Source: Candidatus Methanofastidiosum methylothiophilum
GTDB lineage: Archaea > Methanobacteriota_B > Thermococci > Methanofastidiosales > Methanofastidiosaceae
Direction: 5' to 3'
Length of the DNA: 64,000 nt
Assembly (NCBI GenBank): GCA_001587575.1
Contig: LNJC01000002.1
Span: 9,418-73,417, forward strand
Positions 1,167-32,007 of this stretch are shown one piece after another. The notes under the pieces are model-generated. The model had not been told where the DNA came from. It saw only the letters and a list, made by a program, of their open reading frames with translations, and made no database searches. How positions within the stretch are numbered: the first letter of the stretch is position 1; every line of letters begins with the position of its first letter. Position numbers and translations under genes: made by a program.

Positions 1167-1810
1167 AAAATCTACAAGTATCAGAAATATTTTTCTCAAT
1201 CAACGGAGAAGGGCTAGAAATAGGAAAGCCAACTGTTTTTTTAAGACTCTCGGGATGCAATCTTGACTGCAGTTGGTGTGATACGAAATATGCCAGCTAT
1301 AATGCTGTTGAAAAAAGCATTGATGAGATACTAGAAGAAATTGAAAGAAATAACAATGGTATTAAGTCAGTTCTTATTACCGGAGGAGAACCTTTACTTC
1401 AGGATATAGAAGAAATAGTTGATGTTCTGCATGAAAAAGGTTACCATATCTCAATTGAAACAAATGGTTCGATATACAATGATGTTTTATTAAAAATTGA
1501 TTTCATTAGCGTTGATATTAAGACGCCAAGCAGCAAAAATGAAACTTGTGATTTAGATATTTTCAATAAAATTGTAAATGTAATAATGAAAAGAAATGGG
1601 CAGATGAAGGCTGTTATTTCAGATAAAAACGATTACATTTTCTTAAAGAAATTTATTAATGAAAACTCTTTTAATGTGCCTCTTATAATCCAACCATGTT
1701 GGGATACACTTACCTACAAGGAGCTATGTGAATTGTATACAAAAGATCCAATAAATCATAATAATGCTAGGATATTGCTCCAGATACATAAAGTGGGAGA
1801 AATTAAATGA
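1163..1810 (+). CDS. queE: 7-carboxy-7-deazaguanine synthase (radical SAM)
   Basis: Radical-SAM cysteine motif (CNLDCSWCDTKY) and ~215 aa length. The start overlaps the queD stop. Confidence 0.8.
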   Translation: MKNLQVSEIFFSINGEGLEIGKPTVFLRLSGCNLDCSWCDTKYASYNAVEKSIDEILEEIERNNNGIKSVLITGGEPLLQDIEEIVDVLHEKGYHISIETNGSIYNDVLLKIDFISVDIKTPSSKNETCDLDIFNKIVNVIMKRNGQMKAVISDKNDYIFLKKFINENSFNVPLIIQPCWDTLTYKELCELYTKDPINHNNARILLQIHKVGEIK

Positions 1811-2601
1811 TTAACACTCAAGATGAATCACCAAAACATCAATTGAAACTTGAAAGAGTTGGGATTAAAAATCTTAAAACTCTTATCAAAATTGAAAGAA
1901 ATAATAAAGAATATATGCATATCCCAAAGATCAATATTTTCATGGATTTAACTGAAGACAAAAAAGGAGTGCACATGAGTAGATTCATCGAGAGTATTAC
2001 GGAGATACTAGAAGACGAAGTTAGAGGAGAGCATAATTCCTTGGAACAAATAGGTAAACATATCCTTGAAAAATTAAAAGTTAAACACAGTTATATCAGT
2101 GCAGAGATTGAATTTGAATCTGAAATTCCTCTTTTTGAAATAACTCCGGTCAGTAAAAAAGATACAATTGAGATACACGACATAAAAGTAAGTCTCAGAA
2201 ACAATAACGGTTCATGGATAAAAATATTGGAAGTAAGCGTTATTGGAAATACTGCATGCCCGCACGCTTTGGCTGTTAACAAGAAGGGAACTCACATACA
2301 AAGGGCAATAGGGAACTTAAGAATTGAAACAGACTTTGATAATGATATTGACCTTGAAGAGATGATAAGGGTTGTAGATAATTCATTTTCTTCTAGAGTA
2401 TTTACTTTATTAAAAACTGAAGATGAATCTTTTGTTGTTGATAGAATGCATAATAATCCTTTTTTTGTTGAAGATGTTTGCAGAAATATGTTGTCCTTAT
2501 CATTCTCTAAATTTAAAAAATCAAAAATTCATGCAGAATGTTTAAGTCAGGAGTCTATACATAGGCATGATGTTTTTGCCGAGGGGGCAATTGAAACATG
2601 A
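1807..2601 (+). CDS. folE2: GTP cyclohydrolase of the FolE2/MptA (type IB) family
   Basis: 264 aa. N-terminal region resembles FolE2/MptA proteins (KHQLKLERVGIKNLK...GVHMSRF). Its position between queE and queC argues that it supplies H2NTP for preQ0. Confidence 0.65.
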   Translation: MINTQDESPKHQLKLERVGIKNLKTLIKIERNNKEYMHIPKINIFMDLTEDKKGVHMSRFIESITEILEDEVRGEHNSLEQIGKHILEKLKVKHSYISAEIEFESEIPLFEITPVSKKDTIEIHDIKVSLRNNNGSWIKILEVSVIGNTACPHALAVNKKGTHIQRAIGNLRIETDFDNDIDLEEMIRVVDNSFSSRVFTLLKTEDESFVVDRMHNNPFFVEDVCRNMLSLSFSKFKKSKIHAECLSQESIHRHDVFAEGAIET

Positions 2602-3257
2602 AATCTGCAGTTGTATTACTTAGTGGTGGCATGGACTCTGCAGTTTGTGCAGCAATAGCAAAAAATGAAGGATTTAATCTCTTTGTTTTGCATGTTAATT
2701 ATGGACAGAGAACAAAGATAAAAGAGTATAGCTGTGCAAAAGAGTTATCTTTATTTTATAACGCTCTTGATTTCAAAGTTATTAATCTTGATTTCTTAAA
2801 AGAAATAGGAGGAAGTGGCCTAACAGATAATTCTATCGAACTACCAAAAACTGAAACTGAAGGAATACCTCCAAGTTACGTTCCTTTTAGAAATTCCATT
2901 CTTTTATCTTTAGCCACTGCATGGGCTGAAGTAGTTGGTGCAGAAGCTATTTATTATGGTGCAAATTCAATAGATTTTTCAGGGTATCCAGATTGCAGAC
3001 CTCTTTTCTTTGAAGCATTTCAGAAATTAATTGACGCCGGAACAAAAGACGAAACAAAAATTAAACTTAAAACACCTCTTGCATATATGTCAAAATCTGA
3101 CATAGTAAAGAAGGGTGTAGATCTTAATGTTCCTTTTGAAAGAACTTGGAGTTGCTACACAGAGAATGATAAGGCATGTGGCTTATGTGATTCTTGTAGA
3201 TTAAGGCTAAAAGGATTTCAAGAAGCAGGAGAAAAAGATCCAATTAAATATTCGTGA
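2598..3257 (+). CDS. queC: 7-cyano-7-deazaguanine synthase
   Basis: PP-loop ATPase motif (LLSGGMDS) and C-terminal zinc cysteines (CGLCDSCRLR). 219 aa. Confidence 0.85.
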   Translation: MKSAVVLLSGGMDSAVCAAIAKNEGFNLFVLHVNYGQRTKIKEYSCAKELSLFYNALDFKVINLDFLKEIGGSGLTDNSIELPKTETEGIPPSYVPFRNSILLSLATAWAEVVGAEAIYYGANSIDFSGYPDCRPLFFEAFQKLIDAGTKDETKIKLKTPLAYMSKSDIVKKGVDLNVPFERTWSCYTENDKACGLCDSCRLRLKGFQEAGEKDPIKYS

Positions 3258-3949: not shown

Positions 3950-4282
3950 AGGGATAATACAAATTAGTTTTAACTCTTCATTTCCACTGTTTATATAACA
4001 GTGTAATTCATTTGGAGGAATGTATATTACATCTCCTTCTTTAACAGGTATTTTTCCATCTTCAGTTTTTAAAAACCCTTCACCTTTTAGGATATAGTTT
4101 TCATGTTCCCAAGCATGTTTATGATATGGAGAATATCCTCCCTTTTCAATTTTCATAATTCGCATAAAAAAATTTTTTGCCCCTTGAGCTTCTCCAACTA
4201 AGCTAGTTATTGAAACACCTTTGGCATCATCAGCTTCAATCTTATTTTCTTTTATTTCAATTATGTTTTTATGATAAATCAT
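3938..4282 (-). CDS. Cupin-domain protein
   Basis: 114 aa with the cupin two-motif pattern (HKHAWEHENYILKGEG ... GDVIYIPPNELH). Its start overlaps the stop of the upstream histidine kinase. Confidence 0.55.
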   Translation of the reverse strand: MIYHKNIIEIKENKIEADDAKGVSITSLVGEAQGAKNFFMRIMKIEKGGYSPYHKHAWEHENYILKGEGFLKTEDGKIPVKEGDVIYIPPNELHCYINSGNEELKLICIIPSML

Positions 4283-6108
4283 AATACCACATGTCTTTTT
4301 GGTAAGTTTACCGTGAAAGTGCTACCTTTTCCATACTCAGATTGGACATTTATTATACCGTCGTGTTTTGTAACAATATCAAGTGATATTGGAAGCCCAA
4401 GGCCTATGCCCTGCTTTAATGCATCATCTACAGTTGCCCTATAATATTTCTCAAATATTTTTTTGATTTCATCTTTCTTGATTCCAATTCCATTATCTTT
4501 GATTCTTACTTCTATTTTATCTTCTTTGTCCTCTAGCGTTACTTCTATTTTTCCACCATCATTAGAAAAATTGATTGCATTTTCAATTAGATTAATAAAA
4601 ACTTTTGTAAGCTGTTTTTTGTCCCCTTCTAAATAAAAATCTTGGCCAATCGACTTAAGTGATAAATGAATATTTCTTTTATTTGCTAATATATGAAAAT
4701 CATTTGTAATATTAATTAATAATTCTTCAATATTAATATTTTCAATGTTAAGATCTTTATTTTGAATTCCTACAGCCGTAAACTCTTCAATTTCTTTAAC
4801 CAAAGAAATCAATCTTTGAATATTTCTTTGTATGGAGTTTATTCTATTTTTATTATCAGAGTCAATTCTATCCAAATCTATTAATTCACTACTTAGACTG
4901 ATAACGGCAAGCGGATTATATAGTTCATGTGCTATCGCATCAATAAAATCTTTCTTAGCTTTATCTGACTCTTTCATTTGAATATAAGCTTCTTGAAGTT
5001 TTTCAGTTTTATTTTGAACTTCAATTTGGAGTGCTTTATTGAAATTTTCTCTAATTGAAGATGTCTTTTTTAATTTCTCCGTCATTTCATCCATTTGTCT
5101 AGAAAGGATAGCTATCTCATCATCACCTTCAAACCCCAATTTTATATTAAAATTGCCTTTACCAACTTCTTCTGCTTGGCGAGATATTTTTTCTATAGGG
5201 CTAACAATTTTTTCATTAATATAATTTCCCAAAGAATAATTTATACAGTAATCTACCAAAACAATTAGTATTACTGTAATAACAATAGTTTCAACTACAA
5301 CAGAATCAAAAGGATAACCATAGCTGATAAAGATAATTGTTATAATGGTACCTAATCCAATTATAATAATATTTATGATATATAGTATTTTTATTCTTAA
5401 AGAATCAAGTTTTTCTTTTATACTAATATCTATTTTGAAAAAGTTATACCTCAAAACAGCAGACGCGAATAAACCCATCATAAGAGAATTTGTTATTGGA
5501 AGTATTACAGTATTTCCAATTAATTCATCAATACCAAAAATTACTTTTAGTTGCCCAAAAAATATAATTAAGTTTAATAATATACTTGTTGCTATCGGTA
5601 TTAAAGTTCCAATAAATGCAAACAGAAATCTGCGTTTTTCAATAAATGACTCATTTGAGCGATATCCTGAAATAAGGATATAAAGTCCATAAATAAAACA
5701 TATTATGTAATATAAAAAAAATACATTGAATAAAGGCCCATTTACTTGTTCAAGTTTCCCGTTAATTAAATAGGTGTTTCTTATCAATAAATTGGTGATA
5801 AGACTAAGAGAGAAAAAAATGCTAATTAATATCAATATTTCTTTCCTAATTCTTATTTTCATTTTTGTAAGGCCAGAACTCCACATCAAATAAAGAGTTG
5901 GAGTCCAAATAACAAAAAATAGATTTAATTTATTCCACAGCAGAGGATAAGATCTTTCAATAACAAATAAATTTGTTAAAATTATTCCTGCTATTATAAA
6001 AGCTAGAATAGCAAATATTACATTTATTCTTGATTTATAATTAGATTTAAGAGCGTATATGCCCAATGTTAAATTTAAAAAAAAAGTAATAAATATAATA
6101 GAATTCAT
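4279..6108 (-). CDS. Sensor histidine kinase with a multi-pass (~7-8 TM) N-terminal sensor domain
   Basis: Hydrophobic N-terminal ~300 aa, then a HAMP-like linker. HisKA H-box (IAHELYNPLAVI) and HATPase_c N/G boxes (IENAINFS, DNGIGI, GLGLGLPI) are present. Confidence 0.8.
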   Translation of the reverse strand: MNSIIFITFFLNLTLGIYALKSNYKSRINVIFAILAFIIAGIILTNLFVIERSYPLLWNKLNLFFVIWTPTLYLMWSSGLTKMKIRIRKEILILISIFFSLSLITNLLIRNTYLINGKLEQVNGPLFNVFFLYYIICFIYGLYILISGYRSNESFIEKRRFLFAFIGTLIPIATSILLNLIIFFGQLKVIFGIDELIGNTVILPITNSLMMGLFASAVLRYNFFKIDISIKEKLDSLRIKILYIINIIIIGLGTIITIIFISYGYPFDSVVVETIVITVILIVLVDYCINYSLGNYINEKIVSPIEKISRQAEEVGKGNFNIKLGFEGDDEIAILSRQMDEMTEKLKKTSSIRENFNKALQIEVQNKTEKLQEAYIQMKESDKAKKDFIDAIAHELYNPLAVISLSSELIDLDRIDSDNKNRINSIQRNIQRLISLVKEIEEFTAVGIQNKDLNIENINIEELLINITNDFHILANKRNIHLSLKSIGQDFYLEGDKKQLTKVFINLIENAINFSNDGGKIEVTLEDKEDKIEVRIKDNGIGIKKDEIKKIFEKYYRATVDDALKQGIGLGLPISLDIVTKHDGIINVQSEYGKGSTFTVNLPKRHVVL

Positions 6109-6341: not shown

Positions 6342-7295
6342 TCAATTAATAATATCTTTTAAGACATTTTCTCTCTTATCTTTAAATTTACTAATATTTA
6401 GTAATATTTTATTTGAAGCATCCGTGAAAAATTCATTTAAGTAATATAAATTATAAGATTTAATTGAATCAATCGCCATTAGTTGGTACTTTAATGATAA
6501 ATTTAGTGTATTTTCTAAAATATCCGTTTCAATAAATCCCGCAGCAATATCCATGATTTCAGCTTTCCCTTTATAAACTAAACTTTCTTTCTCAAGATAT
6601 TGGATAACTTTAACAAGAGGATATGTAATCTGACTAGAATTAAAATCATCTTTCCACCCTAGAACATCATTAAATAACTGCATGGATGTTGCCCAGTACT
6701 CCATCATTAAGAGGAAATCATTTCTTTTACGTTTGTTTGAACCCTCAAGGTATAAGTATGATAAAATTGGGATTCTGAGGTGAAAAGCTTTTCTAGCCAT
6801 AAGTTCATAATCAAAATTTGACATATCTTCTGTAATTTCACCTTTATAATTATATCTTTGTTTTTCATAAAGAACAGCGTTTGAAAATTGTATCAAAGTT
6901 TCTTCTAGATCTTTCATAAAATTCTCATTTCTACCAATAAGACTAAAACATATATCGTACATTTTGAATTCACATATATTAGATAAAAGAAGCAAGTTCC
7001 TATCTATTGTTTCTGGATTGTCAAGTATGTCATCAATAATTCTCAAATGCATTATGCCGTAAACGTCAAGATTTGAAAGCTTCCTTGAAATATCTTTTTT
7101 ATTTTCAATATCAAATCCCTCTGATAACCAATAAGGAAATAGAAGAAAAGTATTGAATCCTGCCATTGAAACTTTGAATCTATCAAGAAAGGAAATTCCT
7201 AGATCAGAAATTGGTTTGTCAAGACCGCCTATAAAAGAATAAACGTCACCAAGTACAAGATTAATTTCTTCACTAAAATCATCAAAAAAAATCAT
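6342..7295 (-). CDS. Hypothetical protein, possibly isoprenoid-synthase (class I terpenoid/prenyl synthase) fold
   Basis: 317 aa. An Asp-rich motif IIDDILD (DDxxD) is followed ~120 aa later by NDVLGWKDD (NSE/second Asp-rich-like). The start overlaps the ksgA stop. There is no other recognisable domain, so the fold assignment is weak. Confidence 0.3.
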   Translation of the reverse strand: MIFFDDFSEEINLVLGDVYSFIGGLDKPISDLGISFLDRFKVSMAGFNTFLLFPYWLSEGFDIENKKDISRKLSNLDVYGIMHLRIIDDILDNPETIDRNLLLLSNICEFKMYDICFSLIGRNENFMKDLEETLIQFSNAVLYEKQRYNYKGEITEDMSNFDYELMARKAFHLRIPILSYLYLEGSNKRKRNDFLLMMEYWATSMQLFNDVLGWKDDFNSSQITYPLVKVIQYLEKESLVYKGKAEIMDIAAGFIETDILENTLNLSLKYQLMAIDSIKSYNLYYLNEFFTDASNKILLNISKFKDKRENVLKDIIN

Positions 7296-10541: not shown

Positions 10542-13346
10542 TTAAAGACCCTTAAAGGATTTATCAATTAATCCGTAGCAGATCTGCAACTTCTTTACAA
10601 TTTCGTGCTCTGTAGCAGAATCTTTATGGAAGGGTATGCTTTCGAATTTCTGAAGTAGTGCATTGTATTTGTTCTGGGCTTCCCATATCTTTGAAAGAAG
10701 AACTTCTTTGTCTCTATACATCTTAATAAATTCTGTACATCCTTCTTTTATCTCAATGATATCTCTTTCATACTGTATTTCATAGTCTATTTGCTTTATT
10801 AAATTCTGACATTGCTGTATTCTTTCTTTAAGAAGCTCTTGAGATTTCATATCTAATTCATTTTCAAACTGCTTGTAATTAGCAACTATATCTTTGTATT
10901 CACCTATCATCCCCATGACAAGTTCCTTATCTGAAGGCTCAACGTAGGAGTACCTTGTAATAAATCCACCAATCTTGTTCACAATTTTATCTATCTTACT
11001 CTGTACTATTTCTTTTTCAGCGTCTTTTATTCTATTACTAAATTCTGACATCAATGCTTCTATTTCAAGCCTCAACTGTTCGTCGTATTCCATTAATAGG
11101 CCCTGCTTTTCTTTTATCAATGTCTGATACTCGTCTTTTGCTTCTGCAGGATTTCTTAAGACCTGTGCAAAACTATATCTTTCAAGCAATCCTTTAATTT
11201 TTCTAATAAAGTATTGAAGCTCTTCTTCTTTTACTATCTCTGCGTGTTCTACTCTCTTCTTTAATCTTGCAAGTATTTGATCAATATCGTCTCTCTTGTC
11301 TTCGGCTATTATCGATAGAATCTCGTTTCTTGTCTTCATTAGATCTCTGTAAAGGTCACGCACCTCAAATAAGTTAGAATTAATATATCCCTGGTCAAAT
11401 TTTATGTCAAAAGTCTGTGCTCTTCTTAGAAGAATATCTATCTTTTGGAGTTCGTCTTCCTGGACGTCTTTTAATTTAGCGCTTATTTTTTCTATCTTTC
11501 TTTCAATCTCTATTTCTTGTTCTGAATTTGCAAAGACTATTATGTCCTCTTTATCTTTTAGAAGTTTTTGGAATTCTTCCTTTGCTTTTATTATATTATC
11601 CAGTATTTTCTCTTCGGTGAACTCTCCAATTTTCTTATTTAGATATTCTATAAATTCGTCAACGTAGCCTTTCTTGCCATCTTCTATTTCTTTTATTCTA
11701 TTGTCAAAGGCATTAAGATTAATATTGATGGCCTTTTCAAGTTCATAATCAATTCCAACAGGTAGATTTTTTTGCTCTCTTCTAAGGCTGTTGTAAAGTA
11801 CTACCGCTTCTTTTATGTTTGCATCTATATGTTCTTTAGGATATTTTTCCAGTATGGAAATAGTTTTCTGGAGAAAATCCTCTAATATTTTGATCTTAGC
11901 CTCTTCAGTTTTGATTACTTTTTCTTGGATTTCAGATAAATTACTTTCAATTACAATTTCAAGATCTGCAGGTAATTTCTTTTTTTCTTCAAGAAGTTTG
12001 TGATACATCTGCCTTGCTGATTCCAAATCTGTATTAATTTTAGAATAGTCAAATTCTTCCAATGCCTTGTAAGAATTTTCTAAAAAGTTCTCAAGTTCTC
12101 TTTTTTTAATCGCTTCTACATTCTTAACTCTCAAGTAAAGATCGTTTAGATTTTTCTCTATTTTTTTGCTTAATTCATTGGAAAATCTTGGATATAGCCT
12201 TTGCATATCCCTTGACAAAGCAACATAAGTTCTCTCTGCTTCAGATAAATTACCAGCAATATACTCTTCAGTGTATTTTTCAAGAGCCCTTCCAGTTCTA
12301 TCATAAACAAAAGATAAATTTTCAATTTCCCTTTTTTCTACATCCTCTATTCTTGAAAGAAGAGTGTCAATTGAGTTTTTAACTTTCTCTTCAATTTTAG
12401 AGTCAATTGTACCTTTCAAAGAATTATTTATTTTGCTATATTTTTCATAAACTGTTCTAGAATCCAATGGATTTTCTAGGATATACTGTTCAGTAAAAAT
12501 AGGGAGAAGCTTTTCAACTTCATCAAGTATAGTCAAGAGATCCATTCTTTTCTTATCTTCTATTTCCTTTATTCTCTGACTTAAAATTTTAAGATTATTA
12601 TCAATAAGTGTTACCCTTCCACCTTTTAGTTGCTTCTTCTTCTCAATTAAAGAAGCATAAATCTGCCTAGTCTCATCAAAGTTTTCTGTAATGTACTGGT
12701 CATTCAAATACTTATTTTTCTCTTCGATTTCTTTTAAGAATAGTTCGTAATCTTGTTTCAAGACATTCTCAGCTTTTTCTATTTTATCTTCAATATTTAA
12801 CAAATATTTTTTTATCTCTCCTTCAATCTCGGGAGATATATTTTTTGGAAGTTTTTTATTTTCAACATCAAGAAGCGAAAAAATCTCAAGCACTTCAGTG
12901 TAATTGTTAAGTATATACTCTTCGGTAAAAACCTCATCCTTGTTTTTTACTTTTCTTAGGAAATTAAGAAGCGTTAGCTCTTGTTCTTTTTCTGTCTGGT
13001 CTATTCTGTACTTTAGCTCTAATAAGTTTGAGTCAATTTTTTTCTGGATATCCCAGACTATGACTTTTAATTCATCTATCTCGTCATAGATTTTTTGTTC
13101 TTCTATTTCTGTTGTTTCTTTGCCACTAACAGTCTCAACGTTTTCTCTAATCTTTTGGAGTTTCTCTTCAAAATTTTCAATTTCCCACTGTTTAATCGAT
13201 TCAATATTATGTGATTTTAATTTCTCTAGATATTCTTTGTATCCGTCAAGTAACTTTGTTATTTCAAGGATTCTCTCTTCATTAGATGTTTCAACTTGAG
13301 AAATCCTCTCAGCCAATTCATCTATTTTTTTGTTTTCAAATGGCAT
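10542..13346 (-). CDS. Large (934 aa) internal-repeat alpha-helical/coiled-coil protein of unknown function
   Basis: About 12 tandem ~65-aa modules share the pattern ...LEKYt-EEYI-xN--EAxxxYxxLxxEKKxLP...NLxxIxxRIKxIEdxK. The protein is highly charged (E/K-rich), with no TM segment or signal peptide. Confidence 0.6.
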   Translation of the reverse strand: MPFENKKIDELAERISQVETSNEERILEITKLLDGYKEYLEKLKSHNIESIKQWEIENFEEKLQKIRENVETVSGKETTEIEEQKIYDEIDELKVIVWDIQKKIDSNLLELKYRIDQTEKEQELTLLNFLRKVKNKDEVFTEEYILNNYTEVLEIFSLLDVENKKLPKNISPEIEGEIKKYLLNIEDKIEKAENVLKQDYELFLKEIEEKNKYLNDQYITENFDETRQIYASLIEKKKQLKGGRVTLIDNNLKILSQRIKEIEDKKRMDLLTILDEVEKLLPIFTEQYILENPLDSRTVYEKYSKINNSLKGTIDSKIEEKVKNSIDTLLSRIEDVEKREIENLSFVYDRTGRALEKYTEEYIAGNLSEAERTYVALSRDMQRLYPRFSNELSKKIEKNLNDLYLRVKNVEAIKKRELENFLENSYKALEEFDYSKINTDLESARQMYHKLLEEKKKLPADLEIVIESNLSEIQEKVIKTEEAKIKILEDFLQKTISILEKYPKEHIDANIKEAVVLYNSLRREQKNLPVGIDYELEKAININLNAFDNRIKEIEDGKKGYVDEFIEYLNKKIGEFTEEKILDNIIKAKEEFQKLLKDKEDIIVFANSEQEIEIERKIEKISAKLKDVQEDELQKIDILLRRAQTFDIKFDQGYINSNLFEVRDLYRDLMKTRNEILSIIAEDKRDDIDQILARLKKRVEHAEIVKEEELQYFIRKIKGLLERYSFAQVLRNPAEAKDEYQTLIKEKQGLLMEYDEQLRLEIEALMSEFSNRIKDAEKEIVQSKIDKIVNKIGGFITRYSYVEPSDKELVMGMIGEYKDIVANYKQFENELDMKSQELLKERIQQCQNLIKQIDYEIQYERDIIEIKEGCTEFIKMYRDKEVLLSKIWEAQNKYNALLQKFESIPFHKDSATEHEIVKKLQICYGLIDKSFKGL

Positions 13347-15753: not shown

Positions 15754-16356
15754 TTAGGTAATAAAGAGTAACTCGTCTCTCCAGTCATCCCGGATTCTTC
15801 CATTTTTAATGTTTAACATAGGCATGTAGTTGTGGAAGAATCTTATTGGATCTGAAAGTCTTATTGTTTGTACGTCTTCAATAGAGTCAGGTCCGTGGTT
15901 CTTCTTTAAAGAAGGAACGATGATTTTATTGAAGTTTTCGACGATGTCTTCGTCTCTTTCTCCTTCAAGAATCATTACAAGAGCAACCCTTCCATCAACT
16001 TCTGCAAGGAAAGATTGGTATATATGCTCTGTAAAGACGGTCCTTACGTTGTTTTCTTCATTGATTTCACGAATAAATTGAGTATAAGGTAGACCAAGTT
16101 TAAATTTTATTAGATAGAGATGTCTGGCATTTATTTTCCCAATACCCGATTTGTCTAGGTTAACATTTAGATAATAATGTATTATTCCCTCTTCTTCTAA
16201 TTTTTTCCTTTTCCTGTATACGGTTCTTACAGGAACTCTAGTTGCTTTGCTTATTTGATTATCGCTGCTTCTGGGGTTTCTTATTAAGGCTTTGATGATT
16301 AACTTTTCTTGTTCATCTATAGTTCTTCCCCTTAGAATACATATATCTTTTACCAT
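15754..16356 (-). CDS. Winged-HTH transcriptional regulator (Lrp/AsnC-like N-terminal domain)
   Basis: N-terminal EQEKLIIKALIRNPRSSDNQISKATRVPVRTVYRKRKKLEEEGII fits the AsnC-type HTH. It is divergent from glyA and sits next to glnA. Confidence 0.5.
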   Translation of the reverse strand: MVKDICILRGRTIDEQEKLIIKALIRNPRSSDNQISKATRVPVRTVYRKRKKLEEEGIIHYYLNVNLDKSGIGKINARHLYLIKFKLGLPYTQFIREINEENNVRTVFTEHIYQSFLAEVDGRVALVMILEGERDEDIVENFNKIIVPSLKKNHGPDSIEDVQTIRLSDPIRFFHNYMPMLNIKNGRIRDDWRDELLFIT

Positions 16357-16529
16357 AGTAATTCCTCTATTTCTTGCCAGATTATTATATTATTCTACCT
16401 AATAAGTATATAAAATTATCTATTATGAAATATTATTGCCATAAAAAAGAAATATGCGAATAGCTATAGATAGATTGACAGCAAAATATTTATAAGAGAT
16501 TTAGGATTTGTAGTCATAGTCGTGATTAT

Positions 16530-17762
16530 ATGAAATCTTTGGATCAAGTTGATATTGAAATTTTTAATGCTATTGAGGATGAAAAAACTCGTCAAAACGA
16601 AGGACTTGAACTTATAGCAAGTGAGAATTTTACAAGTAATGCGGTCCTTGAAGCACAAAGATCCGTTATGACAAATAAATATGCCGAAGGATATCCTGGA
16701 AAAAGATATTATGGCGGATGTAAATTTGTTGATGTTGCAGAAACTTTAGCCATTGAAAGAGCAAAAAAACTTTTCAAGGCAGACCATGCAAATGTGCAAG
16801 CACACTCAGGAACACAAGCTAATATGGCAGTTTATTTTGCATGTTTAGAAGTTGGAGACACAGTTCTCGGGATGGACCTTTCATGCGGAGGGCATTTGTC
16901 GCACGGGTCTCCAGTTAATTTTTCTGGTAAATTTTACAACTTTGAATTTTATGGCGTTAATAAGAATACATATAGAATTGATTTGAATGAAGTAAGGCAA
17001 AAGGCTCACGAATTAAAACCCAAACTAATTGTGACTGGAGCAAGCTCTTACCCTAGAGAGATTGATTTCAAAGGATTTAGAGAGATTGCAGACGAAGTAG
17101 GTGCCCTTTTGATGGCCGACATGGCACACATAGCAGGACTTGTAGCATGTGGATTACACAACTCTCCAATTCCTTACTGCGATTTTGTAACATCCACTAC
17201 TCACAAAACTCTAAGGGGACCAAGAGGAGGATTAATTCTTTGCAGAGAAGAGCACAAAAAAGCAGTCGATAAAGCCGTATTTCCATTTGCCCAAGGTGGC
17301 CCTATGATGCACACAATTGCTGCAAAAGCAGTATGTTTCAAAGAAGCTATGGGAGAAGACTTTATCAATTACCAGAGACAAATTGTTAAGAACTGTAAAG
17401 TTCTATCTGATGAACTATTATCTTTGGGATATGAACTTATCACAGGTGGAACTGATAATCATCTGCTATTACTGGATTTAAGAAAAAATAACATAACTGG
17501 TAAAGAAGCCCAGGAATTATTGGAAAGTGCCGGAATCACAGCAAATAGAAACGTAATCCCTTACGATCCAAAACCTCCAAACGTTACATCTGGCCTTAGA
17601 ATCGGAGTTCCCGCAATAACTTCTAGAGGGATGAAGGAACAAGAAATGAAACAGATAGCAGGAATGATTCATAGAGTTCTCCAGAAGAAGGACGATTGCG
17701 CACCGGAAAAAGTAAGGGCGGAGGTAAGGGATCTCTGCAAAAAATTCCCCATTAATCTATGA
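16530..17762 (+). CDS. glyA: Serine hydroxymethyltransferase
   Basis: PLP-lysine motif [14 protein letters not shown] and SHMT-wide conservation (ELIASENF). Confidence 0.9.
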
Positions 17763-18613
17763 CAGCAAAAATCCTCGATGGCAAGGCTTTAGCACTAAAA
17801 GTTACAAATGAACTTTCAGAAATAGTTGCAGACTATAAAAAAAGAGGCCTTTACCCTAAATTGGCAACTGTTTTAGTGGGCAGTGACCCTGCATCTAGAG
17901 TATATGTCAATCTAAAAAAGAAAGATTCAGAGAAGATAGGAATTGATTATGAAGAATTTTATTATGATGATATTTCTGAAGAAGATCTTCTTTTGTTAAT
18001 TGATAAATTAAATAATAGGGCAGACATCCATGGAATTCTTGTTCAGCTACCTTTACCTAAACATATTGATACCAACAAAATATTGGAAAAAATTGATCCA
18101 TTGAAAGATGTCGATGGATTTAATCCACTTAACGTTGGCAGAATTCTTCTAAATATTTCGGATTTATTTCCCTGTACCCCAAAAGGCGTAGTTAAGATAT
18201 TAGACGAATATAATATACCTATAGAAGGCGCTGATATTACTATAATTAACAGAAGTAACATCATTGGAAAACCTTTAGCGGCTATGATGATTAATCGTGG
18301 AGGAACAGTTACTGTAGTTCACACTAAAACAAAGAATTTGAAAGAAAAGGTAAGAAATGCAGACATAGTCATTGTGGGAGTTGGGAAAACAGATTTTTTA
18401 ACTTCTGATATGGTAAAAGAAGGAGCAGTAGTTGTTGACGTTGGCATAACTCGTGAAATAGATGGCATCAAGGGTGATGTAAAATATGACGAGGTCAGTA
18501 AAAAAACATCATATATTACTCCTGTCCCAGGTGGAGTAGGGCCTATGACAAGGGCGATGCTTCTGGAAAACCTTATAATCTGCTTCTTAAAACAGAACGA
18601 CTGTGCAAGATGA
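17759..18613 (+). CDS. folD: Bifunctional 5,10-methylene-THF dehydrogenase / methenyl-THF cyclohydrolase
   Basis: FolD motifs ([10 protein letters not shown]; DVDGF; PCTP; [10 protein letters not shown]). Confidence 0.9.
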
Positions 18614-19916
18614 TTTTTTAGAGTCGTTAAAACTTATTGGTTCTAAACCCGGACTTGAACGATTAAATTCTAAACTTGGCCTAGAAAGAATAAGATATCT
18701 TCTTGAGAAAAGCGGAACAGAATGGGAAGATATCCCGGTAGTTCATATAGCCGGAACCAATGGAAAAGGGTCAGTTGTTACTTTTATTTCAAATATATTG
18801 GCACAATCTAACTACAAAGTAGGATCTTATATTTCACCTCATCTAATTGATATATATGAAAGGATAAAAATCAATGACAATAATATTCCTTCAAAAGATT
18901 TTGATAAAATCCTTTCAGAATTAAAATATTACTGCCAAGAAGCAGAGAAATTAAAGGAAATTGGTAGCCCTACTTTTTTTGAAGTTCTAACAGCTATTTC
19001 AATAATATATTTTGTCCAAAAAAAAGTTGAGGTAATAGTATCTGAAGTCGGCCTTGGAGGTAGACTTGACGCGACTAATGTATTAAATGGCAAAGCAATC
19101 GCAATTACAAATATATCACTTGACCATCAAGAAATATTGGGGAACAGTAAAGAAGAAATATTAACTGAAAAAGCAGGAATAATCAAAAAAGGCTCAGTAG
19201 TTTCTTCTTGTATTGATTTGGATTTGGCAACTCTACTTCAAAATCTCTGCATTGAAAAAGAGGCTAGACTAAAACTATTTACCAAAGATTTTAGGGTAAT
19301 TGAGAAACAAATTAGTTTCGATGGGTCTGTTTTTGACTATTTTTCTGACCACAACAATTTCAAAGATATTAAACTAAAAATGATTGGAAGGCATCAAATA
19401 GCAAACGCTGCATGTGCAATCAGTCTCGCAGAATCTATGTCTTACTTTGGGCTCCATCAAATAACAGAGGAATCAATCAGAAAAGGGCTTGAAAAATCAA
19501 TATGGCCGGGAAGGTTTCAGGTATTGAAAAAAAGTCCAATGATTATGGTGGACGTTGCACATAATGTAGACGGTGCAAAATCTCTTTCAGAAACTTATAA
19601 TAGTTTATTTAAGGATTCAAATACACTTTTACTTGTTGGGATATCTCAAGACAAAGATATTGAAGGAATTCTTAAAGAATTGTCTAAGATATCGAAAAGA
19701 ATAGTATTGACAACTATACCCCCAAGATGTGCCAATATTGGCACTCTTGAAGAAAAAGCAAAGAAATATTTCAAAGATATAAGATCATTTGAAGACCCGC
19801 TTAAAGCTTATGACTATTGTAGGTCAAACCTTAAAAAACATGATAAATTAATCATCACGGGGTCCATATACGTGGCGGGGTATATATTGAAAGGAAGGAA
19901 ATTACTTGGCAGTTGA
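18603..19916 (+). CDS. folC: Folylpolyglutamate synthase / dihydrofolate synthase (Mur-ligase family)
   Basis: Mur-ligase P-loop HIAGTNGKGS, ~437 aa. Context is between folD and fhs. Confidence 0.75.
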   Translation: MQDDFLESLKLIGSKPGLERLNSKLGLERIRYLLEKSGTEWEDIPVVHIAGTNGKGSVVTFISNILAQSNYKVGSYISPHLIDIYERIKINDNNIPSKDFDKILSELKYYCQEAEKLKEIGSPTFFEVLTAISIIYFVQKKVEVIVSEVGLGGRLDATNVLNGKAIAITNISLDHQEILGNSKEEILTEKAGIIKKGSVVSSCIDLDLATLLQNLCIEKEARLKLFTKDFRVIEKQISFDGSVFDYFSDHNNFKDIKLKMIGRHQIANAACAISLAESMSYFGLHQITEESIRKGLEKSIWPGRFQVLKKSPMIMVDVAHNVDGAKSLSETYNSLFKDSNTLLLVGISQDKDIEGILKELSKISKRIVLTTIPPRCANIGTLEEKAKKYFKDIRSFEDPLKAYDYCRSNLKKHDKLIITGSIYVAGYILKGRKLLGS

Positions 19917-21027
19917 AACTAAAAGATTGTTCTTTGGCTCAATGTTGGGATTTTACAAATCATTTTTTCATGGATTCACAATGATCCTTTTTAGTATTTA
20001 TTTTACTAAACTAGGTATATCCCTTTTACCTTATGCTTTGTTATTTGTAATAGGCGATGGCGTTTCATTTTTCCTCAAACCAGTTGTAGGTGTTTTATCT
20101 GACCGGATTGGGGAGAGGTATTTATTGTTAGTTGCTTTGGTATTATCTTCTGTATCTGCTTTATTAATTTCATTTACAAATAATATTTTATATCTCGCAT
20201 TACTTCAAGTTTTAGTTGCAGTATCACTTGCAACTTTTCTCACAGTAGTCATAATATTTTCTCTCAGACCCATAACGCAAAAACCTGAAAAAAAAGTAAG
20301 TATTTTTGGCGGTGTTTCTGGGCTTGGGTGGGTTTTTGGGCTTTTACTTCCCGGAATATTCGTGGATATATTTGGATTGAAAGGTGCTTTTTACTCTCTA
20401 TTTATAATCGGCGCTTCAATTTCGGGCCTTTATATATTTTTCATGAAGGAATTCAAGTTTGAACTAAGAGAAAAGAGCTATCCCTCAATTGAAACACTGA
20501 AAAAAGTATTAGATCCTTTAGTATACAAGACGTTTGACATAGCTGTTTTTACAGCATTTCTAATATTTTTTGTGAGGTTTGCCATTGGAAAATTAGGTAT
20601 GTCAGGTTCGATAATTTCTTTGATAGTGGCGTTTGAGTCCCTAGTCTTTGGAGTTTCTGAGATTCTTATTGGGCGTTATGTTAAAGTTGAAACTAAAAGA
20701 ATGTGGATTAAGTTGGGCGCATTAATTCACATAACAGGGATCTTATTTTTAGTTTTCTCTAATAATATTGCTTTATTCTTTTTAGCATCAGGCCTAATCG
20801 GATTGGCCGGTGCTTTCATAGATGTTTGGTGTTATTCCTTTTTGTGCGAGTCTATAGAAGTTTCAAAAAGAGGAACAATATTTTCCACATTTTCTTTAAG
20901 TCAAGACCTTTCTACAATAACAGGATCTAGTCTTCCTGCAATTGCTTCATTCTTCGCAATTAATCCCTTTGCTTCAATGATTTTATTTCCCGCAATAATT
21001 CTTGCTTATTCAATTAAACGGGGCTAA
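19906..21027 (+). CDS. MFS-type transporter (12 TM), candidate folate/pterin (FBT-like) transporter
   Basis: 373 aa, highly hydrophobic, with two 6-TM halves. It is embedded in the folate one-carbon gene cluster. Substrate assignment is by context only. Confidence 0.5.
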   Translation: MAVETKRLFFGSMLGFYKSFFHGFTMILFSIYFTKLGISLLPYALLFVIGDGVSFFLKPVVGVLSDRIGERYLLLVALVLSSVSALLISFTNNILYLALLQVLVAVSLATFLTVVIIFSLRPITQKPEKKVSIFGGVSGLGWVFGLLLPGIFVDIFGLKGAFYSLFIIGASISGLYIFFMKEFKFELREKSYPSIETLKKVLDPLVYKTFDIAVFTAFLIFFVRFAIGKLGMSGSIISLIVAFESLVFGVSEILIGRYVKVETKRMWIKLGALIHITGILFLVFSNNIALFFLASGLIGLAGAFIDVWCYSFLCESIEVSKRGTIFSTFSLSQDLSTITGSSLPAIASFFAINPFASMILFPAIILAYSIKRG

Positions 21028-21577
21028 TTATTCCTGAATCGGTAATTATCAAGTCCATTTTTACATCGTGTTTTTGAACAGGCAACGATTCAAAAATCTG
21101 AAATTCATAAGCAAGACCAACTTTAAGGCCGGTAGATTCTAATAAGAATCTATCAAAATAACCTCCTCCTCTACCAAGTCTTTCAAATCCAGTTCCAAAT
21201 GCTAGTCCTGGAATGAATAGTATTTCAATTTCTTTAGGATTAATACTTTTGGTATGATCTTTTGGTTCTAGAATATTAAAATTACCAATTTTGAGATCCT
21301 CTAAACTAGTTATTTTTCTAACCTCAAGCGAATTATTCTCTTTTATTGTCAAAGGAACATATACTGATTTCCCAATTTCTATTGATTTATTGATTAAATC
21401 AATTGTATCGACTTCCTTTTCTTTTGATACATAGGAAAAAATATTCTTTGCCCTAGAATAGTCTGGAAGATTATAAATAAAATCTCTTATTTTTTGATCC
21501 ATGATGCCTTTTTTAGTAGAATCTAATCCTTCCATTTTTTCTTTAATTAGCATTCTTATATCAGACTTAGAAAGCAT
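21014..21577 (-). CDS. 5-formyltetrahydrofolate cyclo-ligase
   Basis: 187 aa with the MTHFS family pattern (MLSKSDIR...; C-terminal GxGGGYYDR-like RGGGYFDRF). Confidence 0.75.
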   Translation of the reverse strand: MLSKSDIRMLIKEKMEGLDSTKKGIMDQKIRDFIYNLPDYSRAKNIFSYVSKEKEVDTIDLINKSIEIGKSVYVPLTIKENNSLEVRKITSLEDLKIGNFNILEPKDHTKSINPKEIEILFIPGLAFGTGFERLGRGGGYFDRFLLESTGLKVGLAYEFQIFESLPVQKHDVKMDLIITDSGIISPV

Positions 21578-21640
21578 AAACTAAATAACGAAAACTTTTT
21601 AAAAAGATTTACAATTGAATCTGAAATCAAGATGGTTTAA

Positions 21641-23305
21641 ATGGAAAGTGACTTCGACATCGCAAAAAAAGCAGAAATTTGGCCAATAGAAAAAATAGCT
21701 GAAAAAGCAGGTTTTGGGCCAGAGTATCTTGAGCCTTATGGAAAGCATAAAGCGAAAATAGATCTAGCTATCCTTAAGAAAACAGAAAAAATGGACAATG
21801 GTCACTTAATTCTTGTAACTGCAATGAATCCAACCCCATATGGAGAAGGAAAAACTCTAACAACAATCGGGTTAGGTCAAGCGTTATCCATTCTTGGAAA
21901 GAAAGTCATGATTACTTTAAGGGAACCATCAATGGGCCCAGTATTTGGAGTAAAAGGGGGGGCAACAGGTGGAGGTCTCTCACAAATCCTCCCAATGGAA
22001 GATATTAACTTACATTTCACAGGCGATATTCATGCAGTACAAGCAGCGCATAATCTCTTAGCCGCCATGCTCGATACGCATATCTTGATGGGGAATGAAC
22101 TTGACATTGATATCAATAATATTGTATGGCCAAGAGCTATTGATATGAACGACAGGGCTTTAAGAAATATAGTTATTGGTCTCGGTGGATCGGGAAACGG
22201 GGTGCCGCGTGAATCAAAATTTATTATTACTGCCGCATCTGAAATAATGTCGATAGTATGCCTTTCCAAAGATATAATTGACCTTAAACAAAAACTCTCT
22301 AATATTACAGTTGCATTTGACAGAAAAGGTAATCCAATAAAAGCTGGCGATCTAAAAGTTGAAGGCGCTCTTGCATCAATATTAAAAGACGCACTTAAGC
22401 CAAATCTTGTTCAAACAATTGAGCACACTCCTGCAATTATTCATGGGGGACCATTTGCAAATATATCAATCGGTACAAACTCAATAATTGCTACCAATAT
22501 TGCACTTAAATTGGCCGATTTTGTAATAATTGAAGCAGGTTTCGGTGCAGATTTAGGGGCTGAAAAGTTTCTTAACATTGTTTCAAGAAAAGGTAATTTT
22601 TCTCCTTCTACAGTAGTATTGGTCGTTACATGTAAGGCAATAAAATACCATGGTGGATTAAAGGATATAATCACTTACCATGATGAAGAAGCCTTTTTAA
22701 AAGGGCTAAAAAATGTTGAGAAACATATTGATAATCTCAAACTTTTTGGGATACCCGTTGTTGTTTCAATTAATAAATTTAATTTTGATAGAGATGAAGA
22801 AATAGAAATGATAAAATCTCTTTGTTCAAAGAAGGAAGTGCCTGTAGCGCTATCCAAAATGCATTCTGAAGGAGGCAACGGCGGGATAGAACTTGCAAAT
22901 ATGGTATTAGAATTGTCCAATCAAAAGAACAATTTCAAACCACTTTATGAGCTCAATGATGACATTGAAAAAAAAGTAGAAATAATTGCCAAAAAGATAT
23001 ATGGAGCAAAAAGCGTAATCTTTGAAACAAAGCCCAAAAAGAAAATTGAATTATACAAAAAACTTGGATATGGTAATCTGCCCGTTTGTATAGCTAAAAC
23101 TCAAATGTCTTTATCTGATGATAAGAATTTGATTGGAGTCCCGCTGCCATTTGATCTTGAAGTCACCGATGTTGAGTTAGCAAGTGGTGCAGGGTATATA
23201 GTTATTATTTGTGGAAATATCAACTTGATGCCTGGGCTTTCTAGGTCCCCCGCAGCCGTAAAGATGGATATTGACGACAAGGGAAATATAAAAGGTCTGC
23301 TTTAA
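21641..23305 (+). CDS. fhs: Formate--tetrahydrofolate ligase
   Basis: 554 aa. P-loop-like TPYGEGKTLTTIGL and FTHFS-wide conservation. Confidence 0.9.
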   Translation: MESDFDIAKKAEIWPIEKIAEKAGFGPEYLEPYGKHKAKIDLAILKKTEKMDNGHLILVTAMNPTPYGEGKTLTTIGLGQALSILGKKVMITLREPSMGPVFGVKGGATGGGLSQILPMEDINLHFTGDIHAVQAAHNLLAAMLDTHILMGNELDIDINNIVWPRAIDMNDRALRNIVIGLGGSGNGVPRESKFIITAASEIMSIVCLSKDIIDLKQKLSNITVAFDRKGNPIKAGDLKVEGALASILKDALKPNLVQTIEHTPAIIHGGPFANISIGTNSIIATNIALKLADFVIIEAGFGADLGAEKFLNIVSRKGNFSPSTVVLVVTCKAIKYHGGLKDIITYHDEEAFLKGLKNVEKHIDNLKLFGIPVVVSINKFNFDRDEEIEMIKSLCSKKEVPVALSKMHSEGGNGGIELANMVLELSNQKNNFKPLYELNDDIEKKVEIIAKKIYGAKSVIFETKPKKKIELYKKLGYGNLPVCIAKTQMSLSDDKNLIGVPLPFDLEVTDVELASGAGYIVIICGNINLMPGLSRSPAAVKMDIDDKGNIKGLL

Positions 23306-28444: not shown

Positions 28445-29311
28445 ATGACGATGAAAAAAATATTAATTATTTTTGGATTGATAGTCTTAATAGCATTAGC
28501 ACCTATGTGCTCAACCCCAGGTTCAAGTCAACAACAAACACAAACATCAACTACTACTCAGCAAACCAGTACAACTTCAGGATCAGAGACTTCAAGTAAG
28601 GAAGAAGTTCTAACAAATGAAAAAAATTCTTTAAATGCTAATTCCTATAGGTATTATGCTTTAACTTTGACAAAAGGGAGCAAAGTGAAATTTTCTTATG
28701 AAACCCTAGATAAGGACAATTTTGATGTATATATATTAACAAGCACACAACATAATTATCTGGTTATGAATAACATTAGTAACACTAAGAAGAATAATCA
28801 ATACTTGAGATTTTACTCTGGCCCTAAATCAGAATTCGAATATACTTTTCCGAACGATGGCTTATATTATTTTATAGTCCACAATACAAACAATTTCCAA
28901 GTGCAGTACTATTATTCCGCTATACTTTCTTCCGGCGAAAAATTACAGAAATATCAGTACATTATTTCCGAAGGAACCAATGTCTATTTTAGTAAAGATG
29001 GATGGAGATCTTATGGAACTTACCTTCAGAAAGGGGAAGTTGTAAATATTTACTATAAAGTTAGACAGAACGACTACCGCAATTTATATGCCAGAATGTA
29101 TGTGCTTGATAGTACTGGATACAAGAGTTTTACATTGTCTCCTGAAGATTATTCAGGCAAGATATACCTTAACTCAACTAATGAAAGAGATCGAGATTAC
29201 GAGCAATTAAAATGGACCGCTCCAGAAAAAGGATATTATTACTTTGTATTTAGAAATGTTGATTCGCCTGAAGGATTAAGACTCGACTACAAAATATACA
29301 AACAATATTAA
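28445..29311 (+). CDS. Secreted/lipoprotein with S/T/Q-rich linker and two ~100-aa internal repeat domains; function unknown
   Basis: Signal peptide MTMKKILIIFGLIVLIALAPMCS, with Cys after the h-region consistent with a lipobox. A low-complexity QQQTQTSTTTQQTSTTSGSETSS linker follows. Two repeated modules each end in a ...GLYYFIVHN / ...GYYYFVFRN motif. Confidence 0.5.
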   Translation: MTMKKILIIFGLIVLIALAPMCSTPGSSQQQTQTSTTTQQTSTTSGSETSSKEEVLTNEKNSLNANSYRYYALTLTKGSKVKFSYETLDKDNFDVYILTSTQHNYLVMNNISNTKKNNQYLRFYSGPKSEFEYTFPNDGLYYFIVHNTNNFQVQYYYSAILSSGEKLQKYQYIISEGTNVYFSKDGWRSYGTYLQKGEVVNIYYKVRQNDYRNLYARMYVLDSTGYKSFTLSPEDYSGKIYLNSTNERDRDYEQLKWTAPEKGYYYFVFRNVDSPEGLRLDYKIYKQY

Positions 29312-30948: not shown

Positions 30949-32007
30949 TTATTCTAAATATTTTGAGTAGACTGTATTCTCCTTTAAGAATACAAAATAT
31001 GTGTCATCGACTATATTTATTATTTTAAGTGGAATTTCATCTTTCTTGATTTCTTCTTTTTTTAGGATATCAAAGTAATAGTCAAGTTTTAGGGCATACT
31101 CTTTTCCAGTAAGGATATCCCATAAAATGGCATAATAATAGTTACCGTTTCTTTTAAACTGCTTAACCCAGTCACTCCCTTCTGAAAAATTTTTTCTTGT
31201 AAATGTACTTGCATTGCCTTCTGGAGAGTATATAAAAAAAACTGTGTCAAAGACGTACCAACCTTCATTTCCAGAATAACCAACTGCAATAACATCCTCA
31301 TTGATTAGTTCTAGACAAAGTCCACCATCTTCCCAGTTATCGTTGTCAAAATAATCCACCCAAATAAGTTCAAGATCCTTTGTTAATTTGCACACAAACA
31401 TATCAAAGTTTTTATCTTTTGACTCCCCAGCGATATAGAAATTACCTTCATAATCCTCTATGATTTGGTAAGGTCTTTCATAGGGGCCAATGTCTAGTAT
31501 TTTGCTTGAGATTATACTTCCATTACGGTCAATCTTTACAATAAAACTATCTGATTCTCTCTTGTATGTTGAGTACCCGACAACAGTAACTTCCTGATTA
31601 TCATTTACGGTAAAAGATGAAAAAGCATCCATATCGGAAAATTTAATTTTGACTTCCCATCTTTTACTGAGGCTTGATGTTAGTTTTATTAGATATTTAT
31701 CTCCATCTTTTGAAAGCCCTAATAAGTAAGTATTTGAAAAATTGTCATTTAATATATTTTGAATTTTGAAATCTTCAAGTATCTGCTCTCTTAAGAATTG
31801 GCCGTTATTAGATTTAATAACAAAAGAATTGTTGCTATCTTTAATATTACCTGCAAGATAAATACTGTTTATATGAGGATCAAAGGCTATATCTTTCAGA
31901 ATGTGATCTTCCTCTAAGCTATACAAAACAGCGTCTTCGGATGAAAGAGGGAAAAAATTTGAAAAGACTAGCATAAAAAAAATAAAAATAGAAATTATTT
32001 CTCTCAT
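30949..32007 (-). CDS. Secreted hypothetical protein (predicted N-terminal signal peptide; repetitive beta-rich composition)
   Basis: N-terminal MREIISIFIFFMLVFSNFFPLSSE. The protein is rich in Y/W/D/G/N, with repeated ...Y-x-G... segments suggesting a beta-propeller-like fold. Confidence 0.4.
   Translation of the reverse strand: MREIISIFIFFMLVFSNFFPLSSEDAVLYSLEEDHILKDIAFDPHINSIYLAGNIKDSNNSFVIKSNNGQFLREQILEDFKIQNILNDNFSNTYLLGLSKDGDKYLIKLTSSLSKRWEVKIKFSDMDAFSSFTVNDNQEVTVVGYSTYKRESDSFIVKIDRNGSIISSKILDIGPYERPYQIIEDYEGNFYIAGESKDKNFDMFVCKLTKDLELIWVDYFDNDNWEDGGLCLELINEDVIAVGYSGNEGWYVFDTVFFIYSPEGNASTFTRKNFSEGSDWVKQFKRNGNYYYAILWDILTGKEYALKLDYYFDILKKEEIKKDEIPLKIINIVDDTYFVFLKENTVYSKYLE

Follow-up and report, generated by a model that had tools for sequence, protein, structure and literature searches.

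What does a transporter gene do in the middle of the tetrahydrofolate (THF) one-carbon (C1) genes of a methanogen? We asked this question of a 64-kb stretch of Candidatus Methanofastidiosum methylothiophilum DNA (contig LNJC01000002.1; hereafter the window), in which glyA, folD, folC, a gene for a major facilitator superfamily (MFS) protein, the gene for 5-formyl-THF cyclo-ligase (MTHFS) and fhs, which encodes formate--tetrahydrofolate ligase, lie side by side. The block is the THF C1 module of this organism. Its THF enzymes are unremarkable and have been annotated before in a public metagenome-assembled genome (MAG). The reading that we favor, at a probability of roughly 0.55, is that the MFS protein would import monoglutamyl folate and that FolC would trap it by polyglutamylation; the substrate, the direction of transport and a folate auxotrophy of the host are what we infer from sequences and gene order.

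The MFS gene keeps a γ-glutamyl ligase partner in distant loci

The distant members of the MFS family are encoded on 12 distinct contigs and are 36–46% identical to the window protein. A γ-glutamyl ligase gene is located directly upstream of the MFS gene in eight of the nine interpretable loci (FolC in three and a CofE-like protein in five), and MTHFS is encoded at most two genes downstream in six distant loci. Genes for FolD, GlyA and purine biosynthesis are commonly found in the vicinity as well. The junction from FolC to MFS, with an overlap or a gap of no more than 47 nt, recurs together with a nearby MTHFS gene in members at 36–41% identity, and the overlap between the folC stop and the MFS start is itself conserved in the Methanofastidiosum loci and in the distant loci L046 and L048. 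The three proteins have diverged in step, with between-clade identities of 38% for MFS, 35–36% for FolC and 33–40% for MTHFS. We adopted the importer-plus-trap model because of this conserved synteny, not because two genes adjoin in one genome, and the near-constant γ-glutamyl ligase partner therefore favors a folate importer with a FolC trap. The original prediction had paired the MFS protein and FolC for folate uptake and retention; the pairing gains comparative support from the recurrent junction and MTHFS gene, and transport itself is inferred.

FolC is exchanged for a CofE-like protein between loci that are otherwise syntenic around the MFS gene, namely L048 (8667–11131) versus L056 (9148–11137), the MFS proteins of which are 83% identical, and L046 versus L034 (71%). 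Chlamydial FolC2 (CT611) is a CofE-family γ-glutamyl ligase standing in for FolC (PMC1971073; PMC4161248). Like FolC2, the CofE-like gene takes the FolC position beside the MFS gene in related archaeal loci (MFS 71–83% identical), not in the window. Unlike FolC2, the predicted archaeal CofE-like proteins score higher on the CofE model TIGR01916 (177–195 bits versus a cut-off of 180.65) than on the FolC2-type model TIGR04132, “putative folate metabolism gamma-glutamate ligase” (136–154 bits versus a cut-off of 350). By analogy, the exchange suggests that the CofE-like protein is an archaeal FolC2-type non-orthologous replacement of FolC.

The same contexts bear on another possibility, that the MFS protein transports some other pathway-linked compound: formate, p-aminobenzoate (pABA), pABA-glutamate, serine or glycine, a purine base or nucleoside, or a pterin/pteroate-type precursor that would be completed by FolC acting as dihydrofolate synthase (DHFS). 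The fhs gene does lie two genes from the MFS gene in Methanofastidiosum, but the two are linked in none of the other loci, an argument against formate as the substrate. The formate/oxalate carriers of the OxlT type also belong to the MFS and are matched structurally (rank 43 in the Foldseek search described below), but no OxlT match was obtained among the PDB sequences and no OFA model (TIGR00890) among the NCBIfam matches of the MFS protein at E ≤ 0.001, so that an OxlT/OFA identity was rejected. A purine is suggested by the second clade, in which the MFS gene sits within a purine biosynthesis cluster (L046, L048, L055 and L056), yet no purine genes are near the MFS gene in the Methanofastidiosum loci and L052. 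A precursor would agree with the fact that FolC is not classifiable by sequence as an enzyme with folylpolyglutamate synthase (FPGS) activity only (PMC1971073). A γ-glutamyl ligase partner, however, is easier to reconcile with a cofactor that can be glutamylated than with formate, amino acids or purines, and we consider a different substrate unlikely.

The MFS protein belongs to a small archaeal subfamily

The transporter is a member of the MFS. It scores 75.6 bits against Pfam MFS_1 (gathering score 33.4; 4.3e-21), a generic profile and the only one that it matches; 37 of 37 family members match this profile. Its AlphaFold2 model has 12 transmembrane helices (pLDDT 89, pTM 0.88), and motif A is invariant (G62-x3-D66-x2-G69-E70-R/K). 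A profile search in a collection of 5.8 billion sequences returned about 40 MFS clusters, after which nothing appeared between E = 1e-129 and 1e-13. Exhaustive HMMER analysis of 1.84 billion representatives yielded five proteins of the family at E ≤ 1e-30, and among full-length proteins in the same pass the score falls from 341 to 84 bits beyond the family. These boundaries delimit a very small, archaea-only and previously undescribed MFS subfamily. The dN/dS of the MFS gene within the genus, 0.035–0.066 (approximate, as are all such ratios given here, since dS is saturated), is as low as those of glyA and fhs and indicates strong purifying selection.

The family appears to extend past the Methanofastidiosum lineage, and the hosts of the second clade appear to be uncultured archaea. 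The only two labels found for near-identical (at least 90%) neighboring proteins disagree: topoisomerase I of L050 leads to ‘Ca. Methylarchaceae archaeon HK02M2’ and PurQ of L048 to a ‘Ca. Aenigmarchaeota’ MAG.

Known folate carriers were considered as the identity of the MFS protein and rejected. None of the 37 family members matches Pfam BT1 (PF03092), the signature of the FBT carriers, even at E ≤ 10, and the “FBT-like” label of the original prediction is withdrawn. Likewise, none matches Folate_carrier (PF01770) of the reduced folate carrier at E ≤ 10. PCFT/SLC46 was dismissed by a phmmer search with the MFS protein through the complete set of PDB chains (E ≤ 1), which gave MdfA alone (E = 0.0014). 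The substrate could be read neither from the structure nor from the relatives. Foldseek returned VMAT1/2, NorA and MdfA first (TM-score 0.74–0.83) and PCFT at rank 47, that is, a generic MFS fold at 14–18% identity and nothing more informative; the ten that were checked among the closest full-length distant sequence matches are DHA-like and unclassified, and none of them reaches a curated cut-off.

These neighbors raise the possibility that the protein is a generic efflux pump or antiporter of the DHA1 kind, which might act on antifolates, on products of folate breakdown or on toxic compounds of another sort, and whose position in the operon would be historical. The leading Foldseek matches and the sole PDB sequence match are proteins of this kind, and the closest distant sequence relatives resemble DHA1/DHA2 efflux proteins. 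The identity to such proteins is, however, as low as given above, and no curated family cut-off is reached. Moreover, the linkage to FolC or CofE-like and MTHFS genes is kept across 36–46% identity and many rearranged contexts, which is unexpected for a hitch-hiking pump, the overlapping stop and start with folC are conserved, and the dN/dS of the MFS gene equals those of the core enzymes. An efflux pump thus seems to us a distinctly poor candidate.

Folate uptake and retention as the preferred reading

By established family chemistry, C1 units from serine are loaded on THF by GlyA as methylene-THF and formate is loaded by Fhs as 10-formyl-THF, the methylene, methenyl and 10-formyl forms are interconverted by FolD, and 5-formyl-THF is brought back to the pool as methenyl-THF by MTHFS. 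To this the MFS protein would add the import of monoglutamyl folate, possibly of the stable reduced 5-formyl-THF. The imported folate would be polyglutamylated by FolC and hence retained, and imported 5-formyl-THF would be converted to the active pool by MTHFS. 5-Formyl-THF is an attractive substrate because MTHFS is the next gene, no dihydrofolate reductase (DHFR) gene was seen in the window and archaeal DHFR is reported mostly from Halobacteria and Nanohaloarchaea (PMC11459464); a reduced folate would be more useful to a host of this kind. That it is the specific substrate is nonetheless doubtful, because MTHFS is expected for housekeeping too.

Folates are retained in cells by polyglutamylation, transporters prefer monoglutamates, and salvage consists of a transporter and FPGS (PMC1971073). 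Folate auxotrophy is marked by the absence of FolK and FolP (PMC1971073). Among the scanned ORFs of the 64-kb window, none encodes FolK, FolP, FolB or DHFR, and FPGS/FolC is present.

Several points weigh against folate import. The structural (VMAT, NorA and MdfA) and sequence (DHA1/DHA2-like) neighbors of the MFS protein are mostly exporters or antiporters, and the BT1, Folate_carrier and PDB searches connected the family with none of the known folate carriers. Genes for MTHFS and FolC would be expected among THF genes whether or not folate is taken up. By score, the CofE-like partners qualify as genuine CofE, and the loci carrying them could have a role related to F420. In two distant loci, the surroundings of the MFS gene are otherwise devoid of THF genes: L050 has neither a ligase nor THF genes, and L052 has the CofE-like ligase only. 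Finally, a gene for GTP cyclohydrolase IB (GCYH-IB, or FolE2) is present in the window, though inside a preQ0 cluster composed of QueD (PTPS), QueE (radical SAM), GCYH-IB/FolE2 and QueC, which belongs to the preQ0/archaeosine precursor pathway (Table 1). GCYH-IB is the only pterin-pathway enzyme seen in the window and lies in this cluster; therefore, the GTP cyclohydrolase alone is no sign of folate synthesis.

The window also encodes the S component, of RibU type (148 bits), of an ECF riboflavin transporter; genes for the ECF A and T components do not adjoin it. This component fits a vitamin-scavenging lifestyle.

The five enzymes of the block

The enzyme names given in the original prediction were borne out by strong Pfam and NCBIfam matches for all five. 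GlyA matches Pfam SHMT at 2.6e-164 and NCBIfam NF000586 at 633 bits (cut-off 335); its closest solved relative is the Geobacillus serine hydroxymethyltransferase (549 bits), and the best 60 are all listed as serine hydroxymethyltransferase. GlyA is thus of the bacterial, THF-dependent type. FolD matches Pfam THF_DHG_CYH (8e-38) and THF_DHG_CYH_C (6.3e-60), both above the gathering scores, and reached no single NCBIfam FolD equivalog cut-off (best 352 versus 423); the predicted product is a bifunctional methylene-THF dehydrogenase/methenyl-THF cyclohydrolase. FolC matches Pfam Mur_ligase_M and Mur_ligase_C at about 1e-13 and TIGR01499 at 346 bits (cut-off 163). Its best solved relative is Thermotoga maritima FolC (1o5z, 279 bits), followed by Lactobacillus casei FPGS. 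The product is predicted to be FPGS, and FPGS-only and bifunctional DHFS/FPGS enzymes are indistinguishable by sequence, no motif being known that separates them (PMC1971073).

MTHFS matches Pfam 5-FTHF_cyc-lig at 2.2e-36 and TIGR02727 at 150 bits (cut-off 85), and Fhs matches Pfam FTHFS at 2.8e-242 and NF010030 at 809 bits (cut-off 652). Selection differs along the block: within the genus, dN/dS is 0.035–0.049 for GlyA and about 0.10–0.13 for FolC, and MTHFS is the least constrained, with 58–72% amino acid identity and a dN/dS of 0.15–0.24.

The block is native to the genus

The original prediction described the six genes as a complete THF island. The gene cluster was found as described, but neither adjective held: the set is not complete, as none of the scanned ORFs of the 64-kb window encodes MetF, PurN, PurH, ThyA/ThyX or Fmt, and it is not an island by composition or synteny. 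The six genes have a GC content of 0.30–0.39 versus a window background of 0.336 ± 0.027, and their GC3 is within the background (0.261 ± 0.037). The z value of the codon-usage likelihood is between −0.9 and +0.9 for the other genes of the block and −2.2 for the MFS gene, the latter of which we attributed to membrane-protein composition. One and the same gene order, glnA-HTH / glyA-folD-folC-MFS-<MTHFS-fhs / GOGAT, was found in 26 of 26 Methanofastidiosum loci from genomes and metagenomes. There is no tRNA gene in the window and no integrase or transposase gene among the flanking ORFs.

The block might still be a recently acquired bacterial island added to a methanogen based on tetrahydromethanopterin (H4MPT). 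The enzymes are of bacterial type, as illustrated by the Geobacillus match of GlyA, and the best solved relatives of Fhs, at 585–641 bits, are PDB entries that we take to be bacterial. Outside the genus, the nearest Fhs homologs are 56–59% identical, and one of their genomic contexts is clearly bacterial, another being ambiguous. However, Fhs identity drops to this level directly from 85%, which indicates that there is no recent donor. In addition to the native GC, GC3 and codon usage and the synteny of the block with both flanks, the FolC-MFS-MTHFS core is common to other archaeal lineages, and the host is reported without the H4MPT methyl branch. We therefore regard recent acquisition as very improbable; individual enzymes may be of ancient bacterial descent.

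THF as the C1 carrier of the host

The original prediction placed the block in a methanogen, and this is correct: a MAG protein deposited under the name Ca. Methanofastidiosum methylothiophilum has 100% identity to the window Fhs, and the MFS homologs at 80–91% identity and all 11 full-length genome loci found are labeled Methanofastidiosum. The further proposal of a CO2-reducing, H4MPT-based hydrogenotroph does not agree with the literature, in which the host is an H2-dependent methyl-reducing methanogen and the Wood-Ljungdahl/Mtr (H4MPT) route is reported missing from the lineage (PMC4943185). According to PMC10477309, several canonical components of methanogenesis are missing from Methanofastidiosum as well. 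Since the H4MPT methyl branch is reported absent, THF is most likely the sole biosynthetic C1 carrier of the host, by replacement rather than as a second carrier. This would resemble the Methanomassiliicoccales, for which an encoded C1-THF pathway and no known role for H4MPT are described (PMC6147122). The covered literature linking Methanofastidiosa with folate, which does not extend to the genome paper of Nobu et al. 2016, discusses neither its THF genes nor the MFS protein.

Organization and promoters of the loci

All six ORFs were found exactly where the original prediction had placed them (Table 1), and the surrounding genes that it named are also present, namely YcaO and TfuA, HemC/HemL/CobA-HemD, an Ehb/Mbh-type [NiFe] hydrogenase and a domain-split glutamate synthase (GOGAT). 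The stop-to-start overlaps at the three junctions of glyA, folD, folC and mfs place these genes in a single translationally coupled operon. Apart from it, fhs is predicted to have its own promoter within the gap that follows the MTHFS gene.

Table 1. Positions of features in the window and gene orders in distant loci of the MFS family
Feature or locus	Position	Strand	Start, junction, size or gene order
HTH_24 (winged-helix) regulator gene	15754–16356	−	divergent from glyA
glyA operon promoter region	16357–16529	+	common to glyA and the divergent HTH gene
glyA	16530–17762	+	ATG start
folD	17759–18613	+	start overlaps glyA stop by 4 nt
folC	18603–19916	+	GTG start; overlaps folD stop by 11 nt
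MFS gene	19906–21027	+	TTG start; overlaps folC stop by 11 nt; 373 aa
MTHFS (5-formyl-THF cyclo-ligase) gene	21014–21577	−	convergent with MFS gene, 3′ ends overlap by 14 nt
fhs (formate--tetrahydrofolate ligase)	21641–23305	+	63-nt gap to divergent MTHFS gene
QueD-QueE-GCYH-IB/FolE2-QueC cluster	798–3257	+	
Histidine kinase gene	4279–6108	−	
RibU-type S component gene	49590–50120	−	
ORF without Pfam match	10542–13346	−	934 aa
ORF without Pfam match	6342–7295	−	317 aa
ORF without Pfam match	28445–29311	+	288 aa
ORF without Pfam match	30949–32007	−	352 aa
L046, L048			PurF-PurD-GlyA-PhoU-PHO4-YggS-FolD-PurN-like-PurH-FolC-MFS-x-<MTHFS-PurS-PurL-PurQ; MFS start overlaps FolC stop
L055			PurL-PurQ-PurF-PurD-MTHFS-GlyA-FolD-PurN-FolC-MFS
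L001, L031, L034, L056			FolD-PurN-like-PurH-...-<CofE-like/MFS>; divergent CofE-like in FolC position; <MTHFS downstream in L001 and L056
L052			<CofE-like/MFS pair only
L050			neither ligase, no THF genes
Long Formyl_trans_N protein	L034:3947–4744; L046:6036–6842; L048:6279–7073; L056:5846–6631		261–268 aa; between FolD and PurH
Small ORF	L046:11213–11602; L048:11180–11617; L056:11183–11848; L033:1228–1695; L032:1264–1704	either	129–221 aa; between MFS and MTHFS

The glyA promoter region has a mean column identity of 85% in nine aligned Methanofastidiosum loci. A TATA-like box, AAAATATTTATAAGA, is conserved about 40 nt 5′ of the glyA ATG, and the intergenic region between glyA and the helix-turn-helix (HTH) gene contains invariant TGCCAGA/TGCCA repeats, which could be a putative operator of the HTH_24 regulator. 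The regulator (Pfam HTH_24, 2.8e-08) is 94–98.5% identical in amino acids across the genus, above every neighboring gene, and may control the THF operon, glnA or both. Control of the operon by a THF or THF-II riboswitch was considered and rejected: a scan of the whole window for Rfam families gave nothing at the gathering score, and the position of the TATA box makes the leader too short for an aptamer.

In the distant loci, we observed two further features. The Formyl_trans_N protein encoded between FolD and PurH is long in four loci (Table 1); the version in L055 has a normal length of 207 aa. The one tested, from L034, scored 79 bits versus the PurN cut-off of 150. The long protein may be a divergent glycinamide ribonucleotide transformylase or a different formyltransferase. 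The second-clade loci also carry a small ORF between the MFS and MTHFS genes, which has no counterpart in the window; no Pfam or NCBIfam match was found for the four that were scanned.

Elsewhere in the window, the histidine kinase has an N-terminal 7TM domain, HAMP and HisKA/HATPase, and no response regulator gene was found among the scanned neighboring ORFs. For four sizeable ORFs, Pfam gave no match (E ≤ 1e-6; Table 1).

Comparison with known systems

Methanosarcina barkeri, in work by Buchenau & Thauer from 2004, is said to use THF-dependent FolD and GlyA for biosynthesis, and its growth reportedly needs folate or pABA. Methanosarcina has retained H4MPT, which serves its energy metabolism and carbon assimilation; from Methanofastidiosum this branch is reportedly missing.

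The Methanomassiliicoccales, too, make methane by H2-dependent methyl reduction and encode C1-THF enzymes (Fhs, FolD and others), in agreement with what we propose for Methanofastidiosum. They belong to a different archaeal class, however, and the sections of PMC6147122 that we drew on describe no embedded MFS-FolC-MTHFS unit and mention a methylene-THF reductase in some of them, which was not found in the window.

Salvage of the Lactobacillus casei type combines a carrier with FPGS, so that monoglutamyl folate is imported, polyglutamylated and retained (PMC1971073). The proposed system would work in the same way, but its carrier belongs to an unrelated MFS subfamily, and auxotrophy is a prediction in this case. 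Among the carriers, FBT proteins of the BT1 family (Synechocystis slr0642 and Arabidopsis At2g32040) have the MFS fold and were shown to take up folates, and slr0642 was first predicted through genome comparisons of this sort (PMC1971073); their BT1 signature is undetectable in the present family (0/37). PCFT/SLC46A1 (PDB 7bc6), which imports monoglutamyl folates, shares the 12-helix MFS fold with a TM-score of 0.73. Its identity to the MFS protein is, however, 15%, it ranks behind many drug and amine antiporters, and there is no PDB sequence match.

Implications for an uncultured methanogen

To our knowledge, Ca. Methanofastidiosum has never been isolated. In anaerobic digesters it can outnumber every other methanogen family (PMC10477309). 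As of 2007, folate carriers were unidentified in many microbes that require folate (PMC1971073). A sharply delimited MFS family with strong linkage to FolC, MTHFS and THF enzymes is a credible and, as judged from sequences, good candidate for a folate importer. A wider reading, which we put forward tentatively and with less confidence than import in the window organism, is that the subfamily is an unrecognized archaeal folate (possibly folinate) importer, that Methanofastidiosum and several other uncultured archaeal lineages possessing it would be folate auxotrophs fed by bacterial neighbors, and that in the sister loci the trap function of FolC would have passed more than once to a CofE-family ligase, as an archaeal counterpart of chlamydial FolC2. 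If all biosynthetic C1 chemistry of Ca. Methanofastidiosum indeed depends on scavenged folate, a metabolic dependence on bacterial partners would be identified, folinate or folate would be a supplement for cultivation media, and folate auxotrophy would be one concrete cause of the ‘fastidious’, uncultured state of this methanogen.

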